A stretch of DNA of 64,000 bases from an uncultured candidate division Zixibacteria bacterium (GTDB lineage: Bacteria; Zixibacteria; MSB-5A5; RBG-16-43-9): assembly GCA_963713865.1 (NCBI GenBank), contig OY970208.1:1152001-1216000 (forward strand), given 5' to 3'. Below the pieces are notes generated by a model that had not been told where the DNA came from, did no database searches, and worked only from the letters and a program-made list of their open reading frames with translations. Position numbers and translations under genes: made by a program. This document shows positions 2,505-57,164 of this stretch, in pieces; within the stretch, counting starts at the first letter, position 1, and every line of letters starts with the position of its first letter.

Positions 2505-2655
2505 TAAATTTGTAGGGACGTTCAATTGAACGCTCTTACCTACTACACCTTCGTACGGAAATTGGAATTCCCGTCCGGGAATGATGAGTATATGCAGATC
2601 TATTCGGATATAAGCATGTTATATACCATTTCCTTAAAGCAAAGGAGATAAGAAT

Positions 2656-3018
2656 ATGACTCAGATCTTACTTTATTTATTCCTGGGCTTAATAGCCGGG
2701 ATTATTAGTGGACTTATTGGTATTGGTGGAGGGGTAATCATTGTCCCGGCATTAATCTTTATGTTTGGTTTGTCCCAGCATCAGGCACAAGGAACTACAT
2801 TGGCATTATTAGTTCCTCCAATTGGTTTGCTTGCTGCATGGACATATTATAAGCAAGGGTACGTAGACTTGAGAATAGCACTTTTTGTTTGTTTGGGTTT
2901 CTTCTTGGGTGGATTATTTGGTGCCAAGATAGCAACCTCATTATCAAGCGAAGTTTTAGAAAAGGTATTCGGGATAGCGTTACTGTTGATTGCATTGAAG
3001 ATGATATTCATTAAATGA
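2656..3018 (+). CDS. Half-size TauE/SafE (TSUP) family membrane protein
   Basis: GLIGIGGGVIIVPAL and AQGTTLA motifs; 4 hydrophobic segments; AAGGAG RBS. Confidence 0.85.
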   Translation: MTQILLYLFLGLIAGIISGLIGIGGGVIIVPALIFMFGLSQHQAQGTTLALLVPPIGLLAAWTYYKQGYVDLRIALFVCLGFFLGGLFGAKIATSLSSEVLEKVFGIALLLIALKMIFIK

Positions 3019-3090
3019 GAAAACAACGTGTAAAAGCATGTTCTTTTCTGTTCTGTCAGGAGCTACTCCTAACAGTTAATAAAATATGAG

Positions 3091-3567
3091 ATGACTGATT
3101 CTGAAGGCGCAAGGCTGGCGAGATTTTCTGAAGCAGTAAGGGAATCCAGTTTAAAGCGATTACGTTTAGTTCCAGAAAGAACTGAGAACTGGCGTCCTGC
3201 ACCTAAGGCTATGAGCTTTGCTGATATTTCTCAGCATCTGATCAATGCAGATAATTGGTTATTCAAGATGTTAGACCTGAAGAACTTGAAACCTATAGCA
3301 GGTAAGCCTGGCCTGGTGGAAGTAATCCATCGCAGCCAATATCTTAAACTGCTTGACCAACTAAGGCAAACAGGGGTTCATCGTAGTCAATTACTTGAGA
3401 GCATCACCTCTGATCAACTTTCAGAGATGATTTTTGATCACCGTTATGGAAAAGAGGTCAGCGTTTGGTGGATCATCGTTCGTGGTAATTTAGATCACGA
3501 AATACATCACAGGGGACAGATAGCGACATATTTAAGGATTCTCGACAGGTCAAACATTTCTTTTTAA
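3091..3567 (+). CDS. DinB family protein
   Basis: WRP...MSF....HL and HEIHHRGQIATYLR motifs. Confidence 0.88.
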   Translation: MTDSEGARLARFSEAVRESSLKRLRLVPERTENWRPAPKAMSFADISQHLINADNWLFKMLDLKNLKPIAGKPGLVEVIHRSQYLKLLDQLRQTGVHRSQLLESITSDQLSEMIFDHRYGKEVSVWWIIVRGNLDHEIHHRGQIATYLRILDRSNISF

Positions 3568-3648
3568 TACAATGAACAGGCAGGATGCCTGTTCTACCGC
3601 TGTTTAAAGAGATTGTCGGCATATTTAATAATTTACCAGGAGGTAAAG

Positions 3649-5235
3649 ATGCATAGTAGATATATAATCGTTTTTATCTTGCTCACAATACTTTTGTCAA
3701 GTTTAAGCAATGCTGGAGTAGAAAAACTTTCTTATCCGAAAGAGGTGACTGCGGTTCTTGATTCTTCGGGTGCTAATCACACTGATCTGGAAAAGATCCT
3801 GTCGCATTATTCAAATGCCAAAGATTCACTTAAACTGAAAGCTGCATATTTTTTGATTTCTAATATGGAAGGGCACAGCTATATGAAGTATGCTCTCAAA
3901 GATTCTACCGAAAAGGAGATTGATTTTAATCCTCTTGATTATCCTGATTACAATACTCTGGAATCTGCATTTGACACTTTAAAATCCAGATACGGTGAGC
4001 TTGATTTCAAAAAGAAAGAAGAAATTTTCGACCTGGATACCATCACCGCTGATTTTTTGATTAACCAGATCGATTATGCTTTCAGAGCCTGGGGTGAAAA
4101 GCCCTGGGCAAAGAACCTTTCCTTTGAAAATTTTCGCGAGTATGTGCTCCCTTATCGCGGGAGCAATGAACCTTTGGAGAACTGGCGTGAAGTATTCTGG
4201 GAAAAGTACAATGATATTAAAAATAAAATGACAGAACCTTCTAATCCGGTTGAAGCGGCCAGATTGATCAATGATGATGTCAAGTCCTGGTTTTCGTTCG
4301 ACCCGCGTTTTTATTATCATCCAACTGACCAGGGATTGTCCGAGATGCTTAAGAATAAACTGGGGAGATGCGAAGATATGACCAACCTGACGATCTATGC
4401 TATGAGAGCTAATGGACTGGCAGTTACCAGTGACTATACACCAGTTTGGGCAGATTTCGGGAATAACCATGCCTGGAATGCCATTGTCACCCCGGACGGC
4501 AGGGTGATACCATTTATGGGGGCTGAAGCCAATCCGGGTGAATATCGTCTTGCCCATAAGCCGGCTAAGGTTTATCGCAAGATGTTTGGCAAACAGGAAG
4601 AGAATCTTATCTTTCAAAAAAGGAAACAGGAGAAGATACCCGGCTGGCTTGCAGGTAAAAATTACTTAGATGTTACCGCAGAGTATGAAGATGTTTGTAA
4701 TATAACCATACCGTTCAAACGAGAAATTCCCGATTCAGTTGATGTCGCCTATCTCTGTGTTTTCAATGACGGTGAATGGAAACCGATTCACTGGGGCTGG
4801 ATCAAAAACGGCGAGGTGGTATTCACCGATATGGGCAGAGAGATTGCATATCTTCCAGCACTTTACCTCGACGAAAAAGTAGTCCCTTTTGGGACACCTT
4901 TTATTCTTCAAAAAGACTGCACAATCCGGGAGCTAGAACCTGAACCCCTGAAAACAATATCAGTTAAACTGTTTGCTGTAGCTCAGCCAAAACAGGAAAT
5001 TTCAACTGGGGGGATTGAAAAAACTTTTCTTACTCCTGGGAAGGCGTATGAACTATATTTCTGGAAAGATGAATGGAAACTTTTAGGAAGTTCAGTTGCC
5101 AGCGAGAAACCCCTTGTTTCCGAAAAAGTTCCTGCAGGTTCTCTTTACTGGCTGGTTCCCGAAGGTTCTGATAAAGAAGAGGAGAGGATTTTTACAATCG
5201 AAGATGGGAAGCAGGTTCTGGTGGTGATTTTGTAG
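3649..5235 (+). CDS. Exported transglutaminase-like domain protein (true end probably ...DGKQVWW* at 5227)
   Basis: Start moved to ATG 3649 after CAGGAGG; signal peptide; EYVLPYR, G.CEDM (Cys), NHAWN (His); extra T at 5215-5221 probably alters the last codons. Confidence 0.8.
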   Translation: MHSRYIIVFILLTILLSSLSNAGVEKLSYPKEVTAVLDSSGANHTDLEKILSHYSNAKDSLKLKAAYFLISNMEGHSYMKYALKDSTEKEIDFNPLDYPDYNTLESAFDTLKSRYGELDFKKKEEIFDLDTITADFLINQIDYAFRAWGEKPWAKNLSFENFREYVLPYRGSNEPLENWREVFWEKYNDIKNKMTEPSNPVEAARLINDDVKSWFSFDPRFYYHPTDQGLSEMLKNKLGRCEDMTNLTIYAMRANGLAVTSDYTPVWADFGNNHAWNAIVTPDGRVIPFMGAEANPGEYRLAHKPAKVYRKMFGKQEENLIFQKRKQEKIPGWLAGKNYLDVTAEYEDVCNITIPFKREIPDSVDVAYLCVFNDGEWKPIHWGWIKNGEVVFTDMGREIAYLPALYLDEKVVPFGTPFILQKDCTIRELEPEPLKTISVKLFAVAQPKQEISTGGIEKTFLTPGKAYELYFWKDEWKLLGSSVASEKPLVSEKVPAGSLYWLVPEGSDKEEERIFTIEDGKQVLVVIL

Positions 5236-24746: not shown

Positions 24747-25199
24747 TTATTTCAGGCTGAACTTAACTTTGTACTTCACCCAGACTGCTACTGGGTTACC
24801 TGCACTGAGAGCTGGTTTGTATTCATACTGCAGAGCAGATTTTGTTGCTGGCTCGCAGAAGATATACGGCTTATCACTCGAATCTCTCAGGCACTCCACA
24901 TCCCTGACTTTTCCCTGTCTGTCGATTAGCGCCTTAATCCAGACCTCTCCTTCTATCCCTGCTTTTTTAGCTGAGTCAGGATAGACTGGCTGGACAGTTT
25001 TTATCGGTTGTGGTGCCTCATCATAGGTAACAAATTCATCCGGGGAAGGAAGGGAGTCCTCACTCAGGGCTTGAGCTTTTCCTGCAGAGGTGGTAGTATC
25101 TTCTCCAGCCATCTTCTCTTTGTTCGCACTCTGTTTCTGGCAATAAAATGCTGTGGACAGTAGAAAAAGAGCGATAAGAAGAAGTATTACTTTTTTCAT
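24747..25199 (-). CDS. Exported TonB C-terminal domain protein
   Basis: P.YP..AKKAGIEG.V....LID..GKV, Y.PA...G.PV.VW. Confidence 0.85.
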   Translation of the reverse strand: MKKVILLLIALFLLSTAFYCQKQSANKEKMAGEDTTTSAGKAQALSEDSLPSPDEFVTYDEAPQPIKTVQPVYPDSAKKAGIEGEVWIKALIDRQGKVRDVECLRDSSDKPYIFCEPATKSALQYEYKPALSAGNPVAVWVKYKVKFSLK

Positions 25200-25284
25200 C
25201 TTGATCCTCCTTTCGGTTAAGATTTGTTTTTGTTTGCGTGTAAAGATATTAACATAGACTAAAATTTGTTGCTACCTGCTTTTA

Positions 25285-26418
25285 TTAAATTTTCATTTCA
25301 TAAATCCTGTATTTCTTATAAAGCTTAGCCCCGAATGTTTCCAGGGCGTGATTGATTAGAAAGTTGTCCTCTAAATTCCAGGACATCTCTGCCCATTTAT
25401 ACCCTTTCTTCACCCCATTCGTATAGGTGTCTATATAAAATACGGTATCGATCCCCCTCTTCTGATATTTATGAATTACGCCCATAGTTAAAAGTCTAAG
25501 CCCATCGATTACCTTATGAAATTTGGTGAACCAGAGAAGCTTGAAAATTCCAAAAGGGAAAAGCCTGCCATTTAGCTTAATCAACAATTGATTTATATCC
25601 GGCAAAGCCATTGAAAAACCAGCCGGCTCTCCATCTACCTCAGCAATAAAGACTAAATCCGGGTCAACTATCTTTTTGAAATCTTTGGCTAAATGCTCAA
25701 ACTCCTCATCCGTCATAGGGATTGCTCCCCAGTTTTCGCTCCAGGCTAAATTATAGATCTTTTTTATCTTTTCTATCTCACCTTCAAAATCATTTAAATT
25801 CAGTTTACGAACAACTATATTCTTCTTTTTTCTCACCAGCTCAGCTATCCTTTTGAACCTTTCAGGGGGCCGAATACTTTTTTCCATGTAAAAAGCATAT
25901 AGGTCTTTGGCTTTTACCATACCGTATTTTTCCATAAAATCCAGGTAATATTTAGGATTGTAGGTCATCATAAAAACCGGTGGAAAATCAAACCCTTCTA
26001 TGAGGAAGCCGAGCTCGTCATTAACCGAGAAATTCATCGGTCCACGCATAAGCACCATACCTCTGGATTTAAGCCAATCTTTAACTTTATCCAGCAATTT
26101 TTTTGCCACTGCGAAATCCTCGATTGACTCAAAGAAGCCGAAAAATCCAGCTTTTTCCTGATGGGTCTCTATATGTTTGAAGTTCACCAGACCGGCGATT
26201 CGGCCGACTATCTTTTTATCTTTTTCTGCTAAGAATAGAATTACATCAGCATGTTTATAAAATGGATTTTTTTCCGGATTGAAAAAGGCTTTTCTTTCGG
26301 AGATCAAAGGAGGGACCCAGTTTTTATCATATTTATAGATTTTCCAGGGAAATTGGATGAAATCGAGTAAATCCTTTTTGTTTTCCACTACTCTTATTTT
26401 AAGCTCTTCTTTTTCCAT
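25285..26418 (-). CDS. YghO-like GNAT acyltransferase, candidate bacterial ceramide synthase (bCerS)
   Basis: FIQFPW.IY..D.NWVPPL, GRIAG, GFFGFFES, GPMNFS.NDE.G.LIEGF, YNP.YY, SWNLEDN motifs. Confidence 0.7.
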   Translation of the reverse strand: MEKEELKIRVVENKKDLLDFIQFPWKIYKYDKNWVPPLISERKAFFNPEKNPFYKHADVILFLAEKDKKIVGRIAGLVNFKHIETHQEKAGFFGFFESIEDFAVAKKLLDKVKDWLKSRGMVLMRGPMNFSVNDELGFLIEGFDFPPVFMMTYNPKYYLDFMEKYGMVKAKDLYAFYMEKSIRPPERFKRIAELVRKKKNIVVRKLNLNDFEGEIEKIKKIYNLAWSENWGAIPMTDEEFEHLAKDFKKIVDPDLVFIAEVDGEPAGFSMALPDINQLLIKLNGRLFPFGIFKLLWFTKFHKVIDGLRLLTMGVIHKYQKRGIDTVFYIDTYTNGVKKGYKWAEMSWNLEDNFLINHALETFGAKLYKKYRIYEMKI

Positions 26419-26709
26419 CGAATAAGCTACCTCTCTTTTATCTGAAGACTCGCTTTTGGTAAGTTTATTTCCTGAACTAAGTCAAAAAAGAAATTAACAC
26501 TTGAGTTTGGGTAAGGCAATAGTTTTTTTAGTATTAAGATTTTTAGTGGTATAACAATATATGCTATATAGGATTGTTGCTTAATTCTTTTTTGGAGATA
26601 TCTTATTTAAGGATAGGGTTTGTCCCTGTCCTAATCCTAATAAGGACAACAATATGAGTTGTCTCTGAATTAAATTCATCATCAACTAAAGAAATTTATA
26701 ATAAAAGAA

Positions 26710-26827
26710 GGGAGCCTGCTTAGAAGACTATCTGGCGGGGGCACAAGTCTATGTCTAATTCTTCACTTAGCGGAATTACCTGTGCGTAGTCCTCGAAAGA
26801 GCAGCGCTCCCAAAAAAAGTTATCCTC
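26710..26827 (-). ncRNA. Putative sigma54-dependent structured small RNA
   Basis: Nested stems GGGAGC/GCUCCC, CUGCU/AGCAG, GACUA/UAGUC, GCACAGG/CUUGUGC, UAAUUC/GAAUUA; U-rich tail; begins about 12 nt downstream of a -24/-12 element. Confidence 0.6.
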
Positions 26828-26837
26828 AAAAAATATA

Positions 26838-26853
26838 AGCAACTTTTATGCCA
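26838..26853 (-). promoter_or_regulatory. sigma54 (-24/-12) promoter
   Basis: TGGCATAAAAGTTGCT: GG-N10-GC, close to consensus TGGCAC-N5-TTGCW. Confidence 0.75.
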
Positions 26854-26900
26854 GTTGTATATAAAAAGGAGACAATTGTAACCTTATGTTTAACATATAC

Positions 26901-26930
26901 TTGACTTTAACTTTCTTTCTTTGCTATAAC
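26901..26930 (+). promoter_or_regulatory. Possible sigma70 promoter toward the portal gene
   Basis: TTGACT-18 nt-TATAAC with extended -10 TG. Confidence 0.4.
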
Positions 26931-26945
26931 ATGTTAATTTAAAAA

Positions 26946-27038
26946 TGTTCAATTTTTAGACACTTTAGATCTTTACAGATTATATCCTTAATTCTATCTT
27001 AAAGTTACATAATAGTTTTTTTGTCAATTATATTGACA
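26946..27038. promoter_or_regulatory. Two 17-bp palindromic protein-binding sites (enhancer/UAS- or operator-like)
   Basis: TGTCAAT-TAT-ATTGACA (27022-27038, perfect arms) and TGTTCAA-TTT-TTAGACA (26946-26962), 76 bp apart, both followed by CT. Confidence 0.55.
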
Positions 27039-27215
27039 CTAAAACAGCTTAAGTGTTTTTGTCAGAGGCAGATTAACCTCGCCTGGGCGATTTTGAATAG
27101 GGCTACACTATAAAATAGAAGAATAAATAATATTATACCTGACAAACTTACCTTTAACAAATTCAAAAAATCTACTTTTATGATGGAAAAGATGAAAAAT
27201 AACCAGATTTAGAAG

Positions 27216-28532
27216 ATGAAAATCAAAAAATTTTTCAAAAATTTAATAATAAAAGGAAGCCTTCCATCTAAAAAGGAAAACAACAAATCTTTTCCCCTTC
27301 AGGAAAAGGTTCTCAGCTCATACAGACATCTACCATCAACACCACTTTCTAAAGGTTCATTTAGTTCTGAGGATAATGATATTATTCTTCCATCCCGGCA
27401 ACTTTACGATCGTACCTTTAAAATCAAGCTTTACAGATTATTAAGAGATAATATTCCTGCAATAAATTCAGCTATCTGGACCTGGACCAGGCTCTCCTCT
27501 GCTCCCTCTTCTTACAAGCTAAAAGGGAGCGAGGACCAGGATATTCTAAATCAGGCTTCAAAAATAATCTCGAACTTAGACCGAAGAGTCTACCAGCACT
27601 CCTTCCACAAATTTGGTGGAATTGAAGCTTTGCTTACTCAATTCTTCTACTCCCTTTTCACGGATGGGGCGGTATGTGGAGAATTAGTTTTAAACCCTTC
27701 GCAAAATCGTTTAGATAAGTTCTATTTTATCGATCCCTCTACCATAAGGTTCAAGTTATCCAGAACAAACTATGAGCTTTATCAAGAAATTGATGGGGAA
27801 ATGATTAGACTGAATCAGAATTCAACTTACTATTATGGTTTGGACCCTGATCCGGAAGACCCTTGTGGGAGAAGCATTTTATCCTCTATCCCTTTTGTTA
27901 CCAGGATTGAACAGAGATTGCTTTCGGATATGCAGAAAAGTATGCATAATGCCGGGTATCATCGTCTGCATGTAAAGCTAAAACCACCAGAAAGGTTGCC
28001 TTCTGAATCGAATGAGGCTTATATCGGTAGAGCTAATCGTTATTTTGAGGATACTGTGGAGATGATGAGAAAAATTTCGGTGGAAGATAATCCGATAACC
28101 TGGAACGATGTGCAGATAGATTATATCGGACCCCAGGGGGGTTATGCTGCCACCACTTCCTGGTATATTAATCATAAAGCCTTAATTGAGGAGATCTGTG
28201 CAGGTGTTCACTTAGATCCGTTTATCTTAGGGTATTCTTATGGAGCGCCCTATAGCTGGGCACAGATAAAATATGAGATGATTCAAAGGAACATAATCTC
28301 CATCCAGGCTTCCGCTAAACGCTTTATGGAATGGATACACAATTTAGAGCTGGCGCTTCAAGGGTTAGATTTAGAATACGAGCATCATTTTGATAACCGA
28401 AAGACTTTTGGTCTATTAGAACAAAGACAGGCAGAGAAAATCGCTCTGGAGAATATTATTTTGAAAAAGAATACCGGATTGATAGATGAAGAAGAGGCGA
28501 AAAGGGAAATAAAAATAACTGATGACAAATGA
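27216..28532 (+). CDS. Phage portal-like protein
   Basis: LYR.LR..IP.I.SAI, L.TDG...GELV, IDP.TIRF, P.GRS.L..IPF, EEICAG....PFILG pattern typical of portals; next to a terminase gene. Confidence 0.75.
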   Translation: MKIKKFFKNLIIKGSLPSKKENNKSFPLQEKVLSSYRHLPSTPLSKGSFSSEDNDIILPSRQLYDRTFKIKLYRLLRDNIPAINSAIWTWTRLSSAPSSYKLKGSEDQDILNQASKIISNLDRRVYQHSFHKFGGIEALLTQFFYSLFTDGAVCGELVLNPSQNRLDKFYFIDPSTIRFKLSRTNYELYQEIDGEMIRLNQNSTYYYGLDPDPEDPCGRSILSSIPFVTRIEQRLLSDMQKSMHNAGYHRLHVKLKPPERLPSESNEAYIGRANRYFEDTVEMMRKISVEDNPITWNDVQIDYIGPQGGYAATTSWYINHKALIEEICAGVHLDPFILGYSYGAPYSWAQIKYEMIQRNIISIQASAKRFMEWIHNLELALQGLDLEYEHHFDNRKTFGLLEQRQAEKIALENIILKKNTGLIDEEEAKREIKITDDK

Positions 28533-28815
28533 CAGATAAATAAAGGTTCAAAGGTTCAAAAACTCAATGGTTTAAAGGGAAATGAAAAAAGAAGATTAAA
28601 ACATAGAAGTTAAAATGTTTCAGTGCTTATCAGTTCCTATGAGGTAGAAATACCTCGGGGATTTATCCCCTCTCCTTTTTAAGGAGAGGGTCGGAGTGAG
28701 GTTATTTTTTCGCTCACATCTTTTTTTCATCCTTCGGCATCCGTCGTTAGTAGTTATTTTTTTAATCTGTCATCTTCTATTTTGCTTTCGTTATTTTCTA
28801 TTTGTAGGTGATTTA

Positions 28816-30147
28816 TTGGATAAACAATATCTCTGGAGAAAAGCGCTTAAAGACCCGCTCTATTTTGCCCGTGAATTCTTAGAGATTGAGCCTCATCCCG
28901 GTCAGGCCCTCTGGCTAAAGAGCTCAATCAAACCAGAAAACGCACTGCACACCGGGAATCGCTGGGGGAAAAGCCTTTGCCAGGCGATAAAAATCGTTCA
29001 TCGCTCGATTTTTAAAATCCGCAAGACTAGATATAATACCACAGAAAAATATACGGCAGTAAATGTATCTGTAACCCTTGACCAGGCAAAGATAATCTTC
29101 GATAAAGCAGTCGGTTTTTTAAAAGGGAAAAAGATATTAGAGCCTTTGGTTCAGGATATAAGGTCAACTCCGTTTCCACATATCGTCTTCTCCAATTCTG
29201 CGGTTTTCTGGGCACGCTCCACTCAGAGAAAAGGGGAATATCTTTTAGGATATGATTATGACTATTGTAATTTCGATGAAGTTGCCTTTGAGCCTCATCC
29301 TGAATATGTGGTTAATAATGTGATTATGATGAGACTTTGTGATCGAGCCGGGATGTTAGATTATACTTCTACCCCTAAGGGTAAAAACTGGTTCTATCGC
29401 AAATGCTTAGAGTTAAAATCTCATCTAGAATATGGATATGTCCAGGGGGGCGACACCCGGGAAAATTCTCATATCTCCACTGAGTATATTCAAAGGAAAT
29501 TGAAAACACTGTCAAATTCCAAGGTCGAGCAGAATATAATGGGAAATTTTATAGATGACCCGGATCAGGTTATAGAGGAAAAATATATCAGTCAGGCAAC
29601 CTCAAATTCTTCTGGACTTTCTTCTCCTAAAGAAGGACATCGCTATTCAACTGGATGGGATTTAGCGCGAAAAAGAAACTATACCGTAGGGATAACTTTA
29701 GACATTTCCAGCAAGCCATACCAGCTGGTCTCCCTGGAGAGATTTCAAAGGGGTTGGAAAGAGACGATTGAGTCGATCAGGAAAAGAAAGAAGGATTATG
29801 GGGGAGAGGTTTTGATAGATTCAACTGGTTTAGGGGATGTGATCTTAGAGGAGTTAAAAGATATAAATGTTAGAGGGTTTAATTTCGGGGAAAAAGGGGG
29901 AAAGGTTAAATCTGAGCTTATTGCCAATTTGCAAAAGGAGCATTCATTAAGTAATATTGCTTATCCTTATGTTGAGTTTATAGAAGAAGACGGTTCCCTG
30001 TGGTCTTTACAGGATGAATTAAGGGATTTTACTTGGGATACTAAGGAAAACTGTGATGCGGTGATGGCACTAGCGTTAGCCCTGTGGAATGTGAGAACCC
30101 CGGAACAGCTTCCCCTGATTCTGGTGCCGAGGGTGGAAAAAATCTAA
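28816..30147 (+). CDS. terL: Phage terminase large subunit
   Basis: TTG start after GTAGGTG; adenine-binding Q motif (HPGQ), Walker A GNRWGKS, Walker B YCNFDE, coupling motif TSTP.G.NWFY, RNase H-like nuclease GWDLAR / IDSTGLG / DAVMALALA. Confidence 0.88.
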   Translation: MDKQYLWRKALKDPLYFAREFLEIEPHPGQALWLKSSIKPENALHTGNRWGKSLCQAIKIVHRSIFKIRKTRYNTTEKYTAVNVSVTLDQAKIIFDKAVGFLKGKKILEPLVQDIRSTPFPHIVFSNSAVFWARSTQRKGEYLLGYDYDYCNFDEVAFEPHPEYVVNNVIMMRLCDRAGMLDYTSTPKGKNWFYRKCLELKSHLEYGYVQGGDTRENSHISTEYIQRKLKTLSNSKVEQNIMGNFIDDPDQVIEEKYISQATSNSSGLSSPKEGHRYSTGWDLARKRNYTVGITLDISSKPYQLVSLERFQRGWKETIESIRKRKKDYGGEVLIDSTGLGDVILEELKDINVRGFNFGEKGGKVKSELIANLQKEHSLSNIAYPYVEFIEEDGSLWSLQDELRDFTWDTKENCDAVMALALALWNVRTPEQLPLILVPRVEKI

Positions 30148-41266: not shown

Positions 41267-41770
41267 TTACTCTGCTTTCTGGATGGTTCGGATTATCTCG
41301 TATTCGGAGTTTGCATTAAGGAGTTCTTCCCTGAATGAATCTGAGTGGAGAAGCTCTGCTAAGGCTTTGAATACCTTTAAGTAAAGGACATCGTCATAGG
41401 GTGGAGCGGCGGAGATGAAAAAAAGGTGAACTGGCTCTTTATCTAAAGAATCAAATTCATACCCTTCTTTTGAGCGTGCAAAACCAATAACAAAATCCCG
41501 TACCTGCATAGTCCTCACGTGAGGTATGGCAATCCCTTTGCCTATGGCAGTGGAGGCTTTTTTCTCCCGGTTTAGAAGATCCAAGAAGAGCTTATGTTTA
41601 TTGCAGACCTTGCCAGATTTATCTAAAAGCTCAACTAAATCCTCTAAAATAGCTTCTTTTATGATCCAGAGCTTTTTTTGCTGAGAGATTTCCTTTTCCG
41701 GATCGAACTCGACTTTCGTATCCAGCTCTAATTTGATAAGCTCTGGTTTAAAAAATCGGGACAGGTTCAA
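41267..41770 (-). CDS. Stand-alone PTS EIIA (Ntr/fructose-type) domain protein
   Basis: RE...STAIGKGIAIPH, FDSLD..PVHLFF; AAGGAG RBS before TTG. Confidence 0.88.
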   Translation of the reverse strand: MNLSRFFKPELIKLELDTKVEFDPEKEISQQKKLWIIKEAILEDLVELLDKSGKVCNKHKLFLDLLNREKKASTAIGKGIAIPHVRTMQVRDFVIGFARSKEGYEFDSLDKEPVHLFFISAAPPYDDVLYLKVFKALAELLHSDSFREELLNANSEYEIIRTIQKAE

Positions 41771-47369: not shown

Positions 47370-48549
47370 TTAAGCTTTTTTTCCTGACGGATCCATTTCT
47401 GACAAAACCCAGATTAGTTTTTCTATATCCTCAAGTGAATTGTAGAAATGAGGAGATACTCGTATTGAGTTCTCCCTGAAGGAGGTCAGTATTTTTTTCT
47501 GTGAAAGAGCTCGGTGCAGTTTTGGACAATTTTTACCAGAAAAAGAAAGTATACCTGATCGGTACAGGGGCTCAAGTGAGCTTTTGATCTGGTAAGGGGT
47601 ATTTTTTAGATAATCTATTAGAAGGTCTAAAAGTTTTATGACCTGATTCTCGATAGCTTTAGTTCCAATTTCGGATATAAGCTCTAAAGAGGAACACATC
47701 GTCCATAGATTTGAAAAAGGGTAAGTCCCTATCTCAAACCTTCGACTGGAGGAGAAGCGGGGAAGGTCATATTTCAAAAGATCAGAGAAATTCAATTTCC
47801 AGTCAACACTCATCCAGCCGAAAAAAGCAGGATCGATTTTCATCTTAGCATTATCTGAAAGATAGAAAAAGCCTGTGCCCAGAGAGGAGAGCAGCCACTT
47901 CTGACCTCCACAGGCTAAGAAATCTATTTTACATTTTTTAACATCTAAATCCAGAACAGCCTACTCCCTGGATTCCATCTACAACAAAGAAAATATTTTT
48001 TTCCTCACAGATTTTTCCAATAGTCTCCAAGTTATTTTTAAAACCATTGAAAAACTGAACATAGGTTATCGATAAGACTTTGCACTTTGAATCGATAGCT
48101 TTAAGGAGATCATCTATGCAAAAAAAACCGTTCTGGCTTTTAATAAATTTTATCTTCACGCCCTTCTTTTTCAGATTCAGCCAAGGATAAACATTTGCCG
48201 GAAACTCCACATCTGAAAGCAAAACCTTATCCCCATATTTAAAGTCCAGTCCATTTGCCACGATATTTAAACCATAAGAAGTGTTGGGCACCAATCCAAT
48301 TTCTTTCGGTTTTGCGTTTACCATTTTAGCCAGATATATTCTGATCTGGTCCATCATCTCAAAAGTCAACTTATCCATATCCACAACTTTTTTAAGGGTC
48401 AAAGCATCATAATATTCCATTGTTTTTTTCAAAGCTCTTAAAGGAATGGGACCAAATGAGGCGTGATTAAGAAAATTAACTTTTTGGGTGAAGGGGAATT
48501 CCCTTCTGTATCTTGCTAACTCTTTTGATTTGGTCTTTCTTAGAGCCAT
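47370..48549 (-). CDS. Class V PLP aminotransferase / cysteine desulfurase-like, split by an apparent +1 frameshift at 47951-47957
   Basis: FLNHASFGP, EFPANVYPW, VDGIQ.VG; removing one T restores ..GC-LDLDVKKCKIDFLACGGQKWLL..GTG and a 392-aa protein ending past RVSPHFYN. Confidence 0.85.
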
Positions 48550-49527
48550 TTATTCTCCTTATACCATTTTATAGTTTCTAAAGCACCCTTTTCTAAATCA
48601 TACTCCGGCGAAAATCCTAATTCATTTTTTGCTTTTGAAATGTCGCAGAGCCAGTACCTCTGGCTTAGCTCATTTGCTTTCTGAAGATTTACCAGAGCAG
48701 ATTCCCCTTTCAGGTGAGAGACCATTTCGGAGAAAGAGGCAAATGTGAACAAAAAGAATTTAGGGATTCTTAATTTAAAAGCTCTTATACCTAAGGATTT
48801 CTGGATGATCTTTCCAGCTTCTGTCCAGGAATAAACCTTTTCATCTGCTATAAAGTAGATCTGTCCGGAACTCTTTTGGTTTTCTGCGGTTAAAATTATC
48901 CCCCGGGTTAAATCTTTAACATATATCAGGGAAATATAACTTTCTTTGAATCCAAAGAGAGGAATTATCCTTTTGTTCACCGTCTGGAAAAAAAATAAAA
49001 TATCTTTATCTCTTGGACCATAAACCGCAGGTGGTCGAACTATAGTAACCGGAAACTTCTCCTTAAAACTCAATACCTCTTTTTCTCCCTGAAGCTTACT
49101 TCTGCCATAATCGGTGATCGGCTCGCATTTTGCATCTTCATTTAAAGGGTAAAAATCTTTGCAGGGACCAACTGCGGCTTGACTGCTGACATAAACAAAC
49201 TTCTTAATATGAGAATTGATCTCCAGAACAGGTTTGAATCAGGTTTTTAGTTCCCTGGGCATTTGCTTTAAAATAATCCTCTTTATTTTTCGCTCGGGTT
49301 AAACCAGCCAGATGGAAAACGAAATCTACCCCTTCTAAAGCTTTTCTTAAGGACTCAACCTCTGTTATATCTCCGTATCTATATTCAGTTTCCAGTCCTG
49401 AAAGAAAACTTAAGTTGCTCGTTTTCCTGACCAGGCAGAAAACCTCATAACGCTTGTTTAACAGAGCTTCAACTAAATGGCTCCCCACAAATCCATTTGC
49501 ACCGGTAACTAAGGCTTTAGGGCTCAA
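48540..49527 (-). CDS. NAD-dependent epimerase/dehydratase-family reductase (CerR-like), split by an apparent +1 frameshift at 49223-49229
   Basis: LVTGANGFVG, VFHLAG; removing one T restores ..TC-LEINSHIKKFVYVSSQAA..PITDYGRSK..VRPPAVYGPRD, 328 aa. Confidence 0.85.
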
Positions 49528-54268: not shown

Positions 54269-57164
54269 TTACTTTTGAGGGACCTGAAGCTGATATTGTT
54301 TCATCTTGAATCTCAGGCTGGACTCAGGTATTTTCAAAGCTTGAGCGGCAAATTTTTTCACCCAGTTATTTTCGATCAAGGCCTTAAGAAGATACTGTTT
54401 CTCTAATAAGGAGAGCCTCTCATATAAAGATAGACTCTCTTTTTTGAATTCTTTGGGCAGAGGGAACTTATCCGATAGTAGCTCTTCCAACTTGAATTCG
54501 TCGCTCTGGCTGTAAGCTAAAATACGCTTGGTCTCATTTTCTAACTCCCGTACATTCCCGGGCCAATCATATTCAGAACAGAGCTCCAGGATTAAAGGTT
54601 TTAAAGAGAACGCCTTCTGGTCTCCTTTAGAATGGGTTTTTATGAAATAGTCAACTAAAAGAGGTATATCTTCTCTTCTTTCCTTTAAAGGGAGAAGCTT
54701 GAGATTAACTGCATTCAATCTAAAATAAAGGTCCTTGCGGAAGCGGCCTTGTGCGACTTCTTCTTCTAAATTCTTATTGGTGGAAGCGACAATCCGGATG
54801 TCGATCTTCTTGGGTTTGGTCTCTCCTAAGCGGGTGATAACCTTCTCCTCCAGTACTCTAAGTAGTTTTACCTGAATAGATGGGCTTAAATCTCCGATCT
54901 CGTCTAAATAAAGAGTTCCTCCATCCGCTTCCTCGAAAAGCCCCTTTTTGTCAAAGGTGGCACCGGTATAGGAACCTTTCTTATGCCCGAAGAGTTCGGA
55001 TTCTAACAAAGGCTCAGGCAGAGCCGCACAGTTAACAGCCACAAAATTCTTATCTTTACGGTTGCTGGAATAATGCAATGCCTTAGCCAAGAAGTCTTTA
55101 CCTGTTCCGGTCTCCCCTTCGAAAAGGACCGAGAGATTAGTATCCTTGATCTGCTCCAGCTTCCACAAGATCTTGAGCATCTGACTGTTGCGGGTGATGA
55201 TCTGGGAGAAGGAGCATCTTTCTTCCAAAAGCTTTCTTAACCTTAAATTATCTTCCTGCAGATTTCTCTTCTGAAGCTCAGAGAGTTTCAAAGCTAACAG
55301 ATCCGAAAAGGCTACTGCGAAATTCAGCTCTTTCTGGGTGAAGGATGAAATATCATTAACCCGGTCAAGATAGATGAAGCCGCAGACCTCCTCTCCGGTT
55401 AAAAGAGGTATGAGCAGGAGAGAGTTTATCTTCCCATTTTCTAAAACCTTCTGAACAGATGTGGGGTGAGTAAAGATCAAAGGCTTAAAGAGATTATCCT
55501 TAGTATCAGCAGAGGAGAGATTAAAGGAATTAGAAGGGACTAAACTCTTAGCCAGATTCCTGGCTTTGTCTGGCTCGATGTTATAGAGTGAAGGGCAAGA
55601 AGGCTCTTCTGCTACTCCGTTTCTATAAACTATAAAACCTCTTTCAGCCTGAATCTTAGAAGCCAAAACTATTAATCTTTCTTCCAGAACTTCCTTCCTG
55701 TATATCCTGATATTCAGTATCAGAGAAGTACTTCCTGAAAAGCTTGAATTCGTTTTCCGAGGAAAGGCTTTTCAGGCTTAAACTCTTTTCTATTTCATCC
55801 CGCAAATCACTGCAAAGGGAAAGATTCTCCTTTTCTTCAAGTTCTTCAAATATTTTTTCAGCTTTATTCAGAGAATAGAGAGAGTTTTCAAAATTTTCCT
55901 GTTCAAGTTCAAGTTTAGCATGAGTAAACTCAGTTAATCCTTCAAGATATCTCAAATTCAATTCAGCGGAAAGCTTCTTCGCCTTTCCCAAACAATTCAG
56001 TTTTTCCGGATAATCGAAACCCTGGTTACGAGATAAGGAGATATATACCTTGATCTGCTCATATTTAGCATCGATTTCCTCTAAGAGGCTAACCCCTTTC
56101 TCAAAGGCTTCTCTGGCTTTATCCTTTTCATTTTTCAGGCTGTAGATTTCGCCGGAGATCTTATAAGCCAATCCCTCCTCTAATTTTTCACCCAAGGCTT
56201 TAGAAACTTTTAAGGATTTCTCAACATCCTCTGAGGCTTTTTCTAATTCATTTCCCCTTAGCTCTAACTCGGCTAAAAGCCTGTAGCTCTGGCTGATAAT
56301 GCCACCTTCTGGTGCTATCTTTTCTCCGATTTTAATAGCATTCAGATAACAGGATTTAGCCTCCTCTAACTTTTTCTGTTGAAAATATAGTTCCCCTTGA
56401 TACTCGTAATAGATGGCTAAATCTCTTAAGGATTCGTTTCTGCTAAGAAGCTGAAAAGCTCGGAGAAAATAGGAAGAGGCTTTTTTAAACTCTCTTTTTA
56501 AAATCTTAAGATAACCTAGGGAGAGGAGGCAACGAGATAAATTAATTTTCTGGCCAGCATTCTTAGTTTCCTTTATGTTGGATAAAAGATGCTTTTCAGC
56601 TAAGTCCAGTTCACCGCTCAGGGTGTAAATTCTACCCAAGTTTCTCTGGAATATACCGAGGGTTACCCAATCCCGGCTTTTTTCTAAATAGGAGATGCAT
56701 TCCTTAAGGTATTCTACAGCCTGCACATAATCCGAACGGATGAAACAGATCTGGGCAAGTTTGTTATAGCTCTGGACAATCCCTCTCTCCTCGTCTATCC
56801 TTCTACAAGTGGCAATTGAATCCCTGAACTCATTTTCTGCCTGTTTCAATCTCCCTGAAGCAAGATAAGATTTGCCCAGGATTGATTGTACCTGGGCAAT
56901 CCTTTTGTTCTCTATGGTGTTCCTGAAGAGTTCAAAAGATTTTTTACCGCTCTCCAGCGATTCGTCGTATCTGCCCAGACCGTATAATGCCACTGCGGAA
57001 AGATAATAGAATACCCCCATATCCAAAGAGCTGGTATTTAAACCTCCTTGGGTTTCAACCTCCTTGAGCTGTTGCCCGGCCTCCTTGAATTTATCTTTTT
57101 CTAAGAGGTGTTCAATCTGCTCAAGTCTTTCCTTAATTGATAAACCTTCTAATTTCTCCTTCAT
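54269..57164 (-). CDS. TPR-GAF-AAA+-HTH sigma54 enhancer-binding protein (~964 aa), split by an apparent +1 frameshift at 55684-55690
   Basis: Long N-terminal TPR array; removing one T gives ..QEGS-LEERLIVLASKIQAER..; GAF; GETGTGKD, ESELFGHKKGSYTGA, LYLDEIG, FRKDLYFRLN, WPGNVREL, Fis-type HTH. Confidence 0.85.

Follow-up and report, generated by a model that had tools for sequence, protein, structure and literature searches.

The subject of this analysis is an intergenic gap of about 800 bp (26419–27215) in a 64,000-nucleotide stretch of DNA from an uncultured Zixibacteria bacterium. This whole stretch is referred to as the window, and coordinates are those of the window unless they carry a genome or locus label (G000 for this genome). 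The gap is bounded on one side by a GNAT-like gene on the minus strand (25285–26418) and on the other by a plus-strand gene for a 438-aa portal-protein homolog (27216–28532; PHROG 3753, 5.7e-36), which is followed on the same strand by a gene for a 483-aa homolog of the large terminase subunit, TerL (28696–30147; PHROG 2 TerL, 2.8e-27). Four features, all read on the minus strand, lie between the GNAT-like gene and the 438-aa gene. The portal-TerL pair is kept in 31 of the 34 genomes of the order, and across the order TerL follows the portal gene in 25 of 29 loci, the remaining 4 ending too early. The window holds no phage gene besides portal and TerL, and the HK97 capsid family PF05065 was not found in the genome. 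Elsewhere in the window, a class V aminotransferase (47370–48549) and an NAD-dependent epimerase/SDR (48540–49527), both on the minus strand, are each represented by two consecutive ORFs, a possible result of frameshifts or consensus errors.

A sigma-54 -24/-12 element of the form TGGCA-N6-TTGC, recognized by motif and conservation, occupies 26839–26853 on the minus strand. Its letters on that strand are TGGCATAAAAGTTGC, and its GG-N10-GC spacing places the -24 GG at 26852/26851 and the -12 GC at 26840/26839. Upstream of the element lie two enhancer-like 17-bp palindromes of the form TGT-N11-ACA, termed boxes here. The proximal box spans 26946–26962 and the distal box 27022–27038; their scores of 18.9 and 20.2 against a position weight matrix (PWM) are circular, because the matrix was built from 17 distinct boxes of the stored sRNA loci themselves. 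The boxes are 76 bp apart, center to center; measured from the -24 element, the proximal center is about 102 bp and the distal center about 178 bp upstream. The strict promoter motif occurs three times in the window against an expectation of 0.25, a count that none of 100 shuffles reached. The other two exact occurrences are found at 26094–26108 (minus strand), inside the GNAT-like gene and with no box ahead of it, and at 41527–41541 (plus strand), where the motif overlaps a PTS EIIA-like gene on the opposite strand.

This arrangement is conserved. The homolog set comprises 25 sequences, 19 of them distinct, and 21 distinct upstream regions. GG-N10-GC is present in all 21 of these regions and the strict motif in 20; in the exceptional locus, L004, a G replaces the first T of the strict motif and the element sits at the same alignment position. 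The promoter motif begins 40–47 nt ahead of the first G of the closing helix P1 described below (20 of 21 distinct loci), the proximal box starts 147–156 nt ahead of the same G and the distal box 224–232 nt ahead of it, each in 21 of 21 distinct loci. The genome contains rpoN (one Sigma54_DBD match, 188 bits) and encodes 18 enhancer-binding proteins with a full-length Sigma54_activat domain. A preliminary description of this DNA had claimed a near-consensus -24/-12 element on the minus strand, tandem 17-bp palindromes about 100 and 175 bp upstream of it and a portal gene as the neighbor. All three claims hold, and promoter, enhancer-like sites and RNA structure are each kept in the relatives.

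The predicted transcript is an sRNA of about 125 nt (26702–26827, minus strand), consisting of an AU-rich 5′ leader of about 16 nt, a structured core and a U-tail; its ends are placed from the sequence. A metatranscriptome from a related study, compared together with two DNA runs, gave 0 RNA contigs, a result that weighs neither for nor against transcription. Transcription would start near 26827, 12 nt downstream of the -12 GC, whose C is at 26839, and would end at the conserved U-tract that follows P1. The core (26710–26811, minus strand), a GC-rich segment of about 102 nt, is delineated by minimum free energy (MFE) folding, by alignment and by covariance model R1 (105.8 bits) as a set of nested helices: P1a/P1b, P2, P3 and P4. 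Folded as a single sequence it yields -39.5 kcal/mol (z = -2.45). Since 3 of 200 shuffles fold equally well, this single-sequence evidence is modest. The same architecture is, however, obtained by MFE folding in all 19 distinct homologs. P1 is formed by GGGAGC/GCUCCC together with CUGC/GCAG, and a small internal loop lies above it. P2 (GAGGACU/AGUCUUC) is topped by an asymmetric loop, the 3′ side of which is the C-rich segment CCCCGCCAGAU at the P3/P2 junction (26730–26740, minus strand). This segment is invariant in 9 of 9 species, and its CCCCGCC is unpaired in 19 of 19 MFE folds. P3 (GCACRRGU/ACUUGUGC) supports a second conserved 3′-side internal loop, UUAGACAUA, at the P4/P3 junction (26750–26758, minus strand), in which UAGA is invariant, and a variable apical hairpin, P4, forms the tip. 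In all 19 homologs the P1 helix GGGAGC/GCUCCC is followed by 5–9 U. A standard terminator scan reports no terminator at P1 and its U-tract, because the "loop" in this case is the whole RNA, the stem enclosing about 90 nt. A 40-aa minus-strand ORF (26720–26842) was rejected as a candidate gene: its start falls within the promoter, and the frame is lost among the homologs, whose lengths differ by 1 and 4 nt.

Comparative evidence for the fold differs from helix to helix. In alignment A3, which was fitted to the covariance model, 93.1% of the cells pair in standard fashion, compared with 33.7–50.6% when the 3′ partners are slid by 1–3 columns. Changes on both sides of a pair occur at six pairs, two in P2 and four in P4, and the covariation score was reached by none of 500 shuffles. 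The covariance model and the covariation check thus show the structure to be kept, with compensatory changes in P2 and in the apical stem. It should be noted that the sequences of A3 are related and that 13 of the 27 basal pairs (P1–P3) never vary. For these reasons, together with the fitting of the alignment to the model, we regard P2 and P4 as well supported and the remaining helices as only compatible with the data. P1 and P2 are near-invariant on both strands across four genera in which the portal proteins are only 72–78% identical. Such constraint exceeds what pairing alone needs; it would be expected of a protein-binding RNA no less than of one that pairs with other RNAs.

The RNA has a narrow distribution. 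By BLAST, every one of the 8 other genomes in this Zixibacteria family has a homolog (E from 2e-72 to 2e-10), which makes 9 of 9 in total; among 32 genomes of other families, the best E value was 0.002, with pieces of only 20–25 nt. In a scan of 151 genomes sampled across the phylum, which used stricter filters, R1 matched 4 genomes, all of family f1 and including our own, and none of the 147 genomes of other Zixibacteria families. The model also matches 7 of 18 genome-collection contigs that carry an invariant 18-mer of the RNA, several of them titled Zixibacteria, and 16 of 32 metagenome contigs that carry it. RNA, promoter and both boxes occur at fixed spacing in the 9 family genomes and in these 16 metagenome contigs. 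Each relative has one copy of the RNA, and a multi-copy repeat was rejected on the single match in the 2.72-Mb genome.

No known family accounts for the element. An Rfam 15 scan of positions 25000–29000 at E <= 10 gave no match in the gap 26419–27215; the four snoRNA and miRNA matches that it returned are at chance level and outside the gap. ARAGORN found neither a tRNA nor a tmRNA in the gap. Full-text literature searches retrieved no sRNA of a PEP-CTERM regulon and no sRNA of Zixibacteria. The five nested stems of the preliminary description correspond to P1a, P1b, P2, P3 and P4, and its unpaired C-rich segment and U-rich tail are both found throughout the homologs. Its failure to recognize a riboswitch class is matched by the Rfam result, and its proposal of a new structured RNA gene stands insofar as the element belongs to no Rfam family and is not a repeat. 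We take the RNA to represent a new sRNA family that is restricted to one bacterial family and whose predicted input is unusually well defined. All 9 genomes of that family have it and 147 others of the phylum gave no match, so that it marks a clean innovation at family level.

The predicted input emerges from the boxes. When the PWM was scanned over the genome, many of the best other intergenic matches proved to sit 50–150 bp upstream of sigma-54 motifs. Seven of 186 promoter-like motifs have a box scoring at least 12.9 within 40–320 bp upstream, against 0.3–0.5% of random 280-nt windows. Boxed sigma-54 promoters precede PEP-CTERM genes at G000:C1 736315, 544016 and 119944, and are also found ahead of a 215-aa gene with no Pfam family that is divergent from the gene at 736315, ahead of a type IV pilin pair and ahead of a gene for a 321-aa protein of unknown function. 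PEP-CTERM genes number 5 in this genome; GG-N10-GC occurs upstream of all 5 and a box upstream of 4, with scores (12.9–20.5) that, unlike those of the sRNA loci, are not circular. For the boxes at PEP-CTERM genes, here and in the relatives, the background is 0.3–0.8% of random windows. Four relatives (G001, G003, G005 and G007) gave 21 PEP-CTERM matches, of which 3 with open frames of only 49–66 aa were excluded. Among the 18 genes examined, 16 are preceded, within 450 nt, by a box scoring at least 11, and in 11 cases a box and the strict sigma-54 motif occur together. Two further boxes, at G000:C1:1964029–1964045 (score 16.7) and G000:C1:2132651–2132667 (18.9), are neighbors of tRNA-like sequences and have no sigma-54 motif in their vicinity.

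The most divergent homolog, L036, carries the RNA, the promoter and both boxes beside a PEP-CTERM gene. This gene (L036:1483–2253, plus strand) is convergent to the RNA; a stretch of about 1.3 kb on the upstream side of the RNA (2577–3868) is free of ORFs of at least 80 aa and is followed by a serine-recombinase gene (3869–5017, minus strand). The L036 locus looks rearranged.

A candidate regulator of these promoters is encoded elsewhere in the genome. The PrsR model TIGR02915 is passed by a single enhancer-binding protein (G000:C1:120904–122229), with 580.7 bits against a cut-off of 502.6; the genome has 17 enhancer-binding proteins besides it. The gene is preceded by that of a PrsK-type kinase (TIGR02916, 350.8 bits against a cut-off of 300) and followed by a boxed PEP-CTERM gene, and the exosortase EpsH (246 bits) is encoded 7 kb away. 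The one-strand gene row at G000:C1:116459–124155 comprises prsK, prsR, the boxed PEP-CTERM gene and genes for a 475-aa response-regulator enhancer-binding protein and a DUF4388 protein; the second, 475-aa regulator may share the same boxes or compete for them. The window itself also encodes, at a distance of 28 kb from the RNA, a sigma-54 enhancer-binding protein of the GAF type, which stands behind a large TPR protein (54269–57164, minus strand). It was rejected as the favored activator, scoring 279.8 with the PrsR model against the cut-off of 502.6.

The layout resembles one already described for protein genes. The account of the cis-regulatory region in Haft 2006 (PMC1569441) describes proteobacterial PEP-CTERM genes preceded by a 17-nt motif 1, which is sometimes repeated, a spacer of 32–92 nt and a sigma-54 motif; according to the same account, motif 1 ends in TTTACA and PrsR is its predicted binder. 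The Zixibacteria locus shares with that region, as described there, a repeated upstream motif of 17 nt, a spacer (92 nt in our case) and a sigma-54 motif, and this genome shares with the PrsK/PrsR/PrsT system so described prsK-prsR, the exosortase EpsH and boxed PEP-CTERM genes. There are also differences from that account: the site of Haft 2006 is presented for Proteobacteria only and for protein genes, whereas the comparable site here lies in a Zixibacterium and ahead of a non-coding RNA, and our 17-nt box ends in TTGACA or TGAACA instead of TTTACA, a comparison made with the text description of the motif. In Desulfovibrio vulgaris, the DAP-chip results given in the relevant part of Rajeev 2011 (PMC3333781) indicate that the PrsR-like regulator DVUA0057 enriched predicted PEP-CTERM targets. 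Because the box and the sigma-54 promoter are common to the RNA and to the PEP-CTERM genes, and because prsK-prsR is present in the genome, we assign the RNA to the PEP-CTERM regulon. The RNA is most likely an output of the enhancer-binding protein PrsR, the binding of which we infer from this co-occurrence, and probably represents a new regulatory RNA of the biofilm-related PEP-CTERM circuit.

In our opinion, the best explanation, in which we place reasonable if not high confidence, is that the locus is a stand-alone gene for a structured sRNA of about 125 nt that is sigma-54-driven, is activated by PrsR and serves as a trans-acting arm of the PEP-CTERM regulon. According to this model, which is derived from sequence comparison, sigma-54 RNA polymerase would occupy the -24/-12 element, and an enhancer-binding protein, most likely PrsR, would activate it from the two TGT-N11-ACA boxes 100–180 bp upstream; the prsK-prsR genes are located elsewhere on the chromosome. 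Transcription would stop at the U-tract after the closing helix. The RNA would be made together with the PEP-CTERM surface proteins and would act in trans as the post-transcriptional arm of their regulon, its working surfaces being the two invariant single-stranded 3′-side loops and above all CCCCGCCAGAU.

The loops could operate in either of two ways. That they act by base pairing with mRNAs is plausible, at somewhat less than an even chance; that they bind and titrate a protein, as the near-invariance on both strands suggests, is rather more doubtful. The Hfq family PF17209 has no match in the genome, which is 94% complete. CsrA is present, but the RNA has none of the repeated GGA loops that mark CsrA sponges. 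Duplex energies between the C-rich loop and 2387 start regions did not point to any target that is conserved. At -32 kcal/mol, the strongest duplex (mean -11, standard deviation 3.8 over the 2387 regions) involves the start region of an ABC ATPase gene at G000:C1:617233; this candidate was rejected, as the duplex energy is -24.8 kcal/mol within the genus and only -9.5 to -19.4 kcal/mol in six loci of other genera, while the loop itself is invariant. PEP-CTERM mRNAs rank between 624 and 1835 of 2387, and genes of the regulon are not enriched among the C-rich-loop duplexes with these start regions, save one at rank 18. Six exact complements of the loop, 9–12 nt in length, were inspected: three belong to hairpins that look like terminators, and the other three are in coding sequence, among them the ABC ATPase start. 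The start regions of the PEP-CTERM genes have GGAGG-like sites and not G-runs. Thus, the role that the preliminary description suggested for the C-rich segment, as a possible seed for pairing with G-rich ribosome-binding sites, received no backing from target prediction, which returned no conserved candidate and a best duplex that is lost outside the genus.

The position of the RNA next to portal and TerL invites other readings. One leaves the RNA in the PrsK/PrsR exosortase regulon, as its non-coding arm, and supposes that in this family it was recruited beside a domesticated portal-terminase pair, so that it would couple matrix or biofilm production to virus-derived, GTA-like DNA packaging, by regulation or as an RNA partner; we consider this quite unlikely. 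In our judgment slightly less credible still is the view that the RNA serves portal and TerL as such, either as a packaging RNA or as a regulator of a domesticated GTA-like packaging module. The precedent is the pRNA of phage phi29, which is structured, measures about 120 nt and is encoded close to genes for head packaging; our RNA resembles it in size and in its proximity to such genes. The portal gene is divergent from the RNA in 29 of 30 family f1 loci with enough flank, the genes beyond TerL and beyond the RNA vary between genera, and the near-invariance of both helix strands is reminiscent of RNAs of RNA-protein particles. Against this, the RNA model with filters off finds nothing beside the pair in 20 loci of the sister families f2 and f4 (best 12 bits), a divergent sigma-54 motif is present in 0 of the same 20 loci, and an alignment of 14 portal-upstream regions of f2 contains no conserved GC island. 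Moreover, the RNA of L036 has no portal or TerL within 2.4 kb. The lack of any Rfam match, which also separates the RNA from phi29 pRNA, extends to a phage packaging-RNA family if Rfam includes one. Complementarity between the C-rich loop and the start region of the portal gene is poor, at rank 2327 of 2387, and duplexes of the whole sRNA with portal leaders consisted only of meaningless long-range structures. Since the RNA is absent beside the pair in sister families and present without the pair in L036, its adjacency to portal in family f1 looks like lineage history and not function.

It is highly improbable that the conserved block is a DNA-level element, such as a site of recombination or attachment or an array of binding sites, with an incidental sigma-54 motif. 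Most positions are indeed invariant and do not covary, and a serine recombinase is encoded 1.3 kb away in L036, as such a reading would have it. Nevertheless, pairing in P2 and P4 is kept by compensatory changes; promoter, U-tract and the distance from promoter to fold are each conserved, in a defined orientation; and the identical layout of promoter and boxes drives protein genes elsewhere.

The downstream side of the RNA varies. In 32 loci oriented on the RNA, the next gene is GNAT in genus g1 and belongs to cluster c1, c4 or c3 elsewhere, mostly in genus g3; in G003 and G005 it is convergent to the RNA. Sequence past the U-tract cannot be aligned outside the genus. As the gene downstream changes from genus to genus and is convergent in two of them, the RNA is best regarded as stand-alone and not as a leader. 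The least probable reading, a cis-acting leader, riboswitch or attenuator of the downstream same-strand gene, can point to a structured GC-rich element followed by a U-tract and to the GNAT-like gene about 290 nt on in this genome, but synteny has already refuted it for the most part, with no fewer than four clusters (c6, c1, c4 and c3) downstream across genera, and it has no Rfam riboswitch match on its side. A short inverted repeat is present downstream of the RNA at 26611–26648; it matches many short, unrelated metagenome contigs with loose ends and is single-copy in this genome.

The stand-alone, PrsR-activated sRNA gene that we favor can be set beside several known systems. Sigma-54-driven sRNAs are known outputs of a few two-component systems, in quorum sensing, amino-sugar and carbon control. 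The Qrr sRNAs of Vibrio are about 100 nt long, depend on LuxO and sigma-54, have upstream activator sites, are the output of a response regulator and are strongly conserved within their clade. A small RNA, a promoter of sigma-54 type as the only one, upstream activator sites, very strong conservation within a clade and a (here predicted) response-regulator output are common to Qrr and to our locus. The latter differs from Qrr in having no Rfam match at E <= 10, in being single-copy, in folding as one long irregular hairpin instead of several stem-loops, in the lack of a detected Hfq and in the separation of the RNA gene from its presumed activator. GlmY and GlmZ of enterobacteria are controlled by GlrR/QseF and sigma-54 through TGTC-N10-GACA activator sites, and GlmY acts by protein sequestration, which corresponds to the second of the two mechanisms considered above. 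Here too, a sigma-54 promoter is combined with upstream inverted repeats of the TGTC...GACA type; in contrast to GlmY/GlmZ, the RNA has no Rfam match, the half-site spacing is N9 or N11 instead of N10, and the regulon is a different one.

Among bacteria of sediments and biofilms the PEP-CTERM/exosortase system is widely distributed, and its regulator PrsR has been predicted and only partly tested. If the proposed reading is true, the RNA adds a post-transcriptional layer to the control of floc and biofilm matrix, and an uncultured phylum gains its first defined sRNA with a known input signal. With PrsR as the predicted input, box, promoter and RNA would be easily tested in a heterologous host.

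A comparable pairing of an sRNA with an NtrC-type response regulator is Dv_sRNA2 of D. vulgaris, which the relevant part of Rajeev 2011 (PMC3333781) lists as a mapped target of the sigma-54 response regulator DVU0679, its function being given as unknown. The link is mapped in that case and predicted in ours. As far as that part of the paper describes it (PMC3333781), the D. vulgaris case differs from the present one in that the PEP-CTERM regulator DVUA0057 and the regulator of the sRNA are distinct and in that the sRNA lies beside its regulator gene.

On the portal side of the gap, a family-conserved block lies upstream of the portal start (27150–27215, and at the same place in L002–L009). Within it lie CTACTTTTA, an element resembling TAnnTTT, and a short upstream reading frame (6–10 codons); the block may constitute the portal gene's own promoter and leader, separate from the sigma-54 module.
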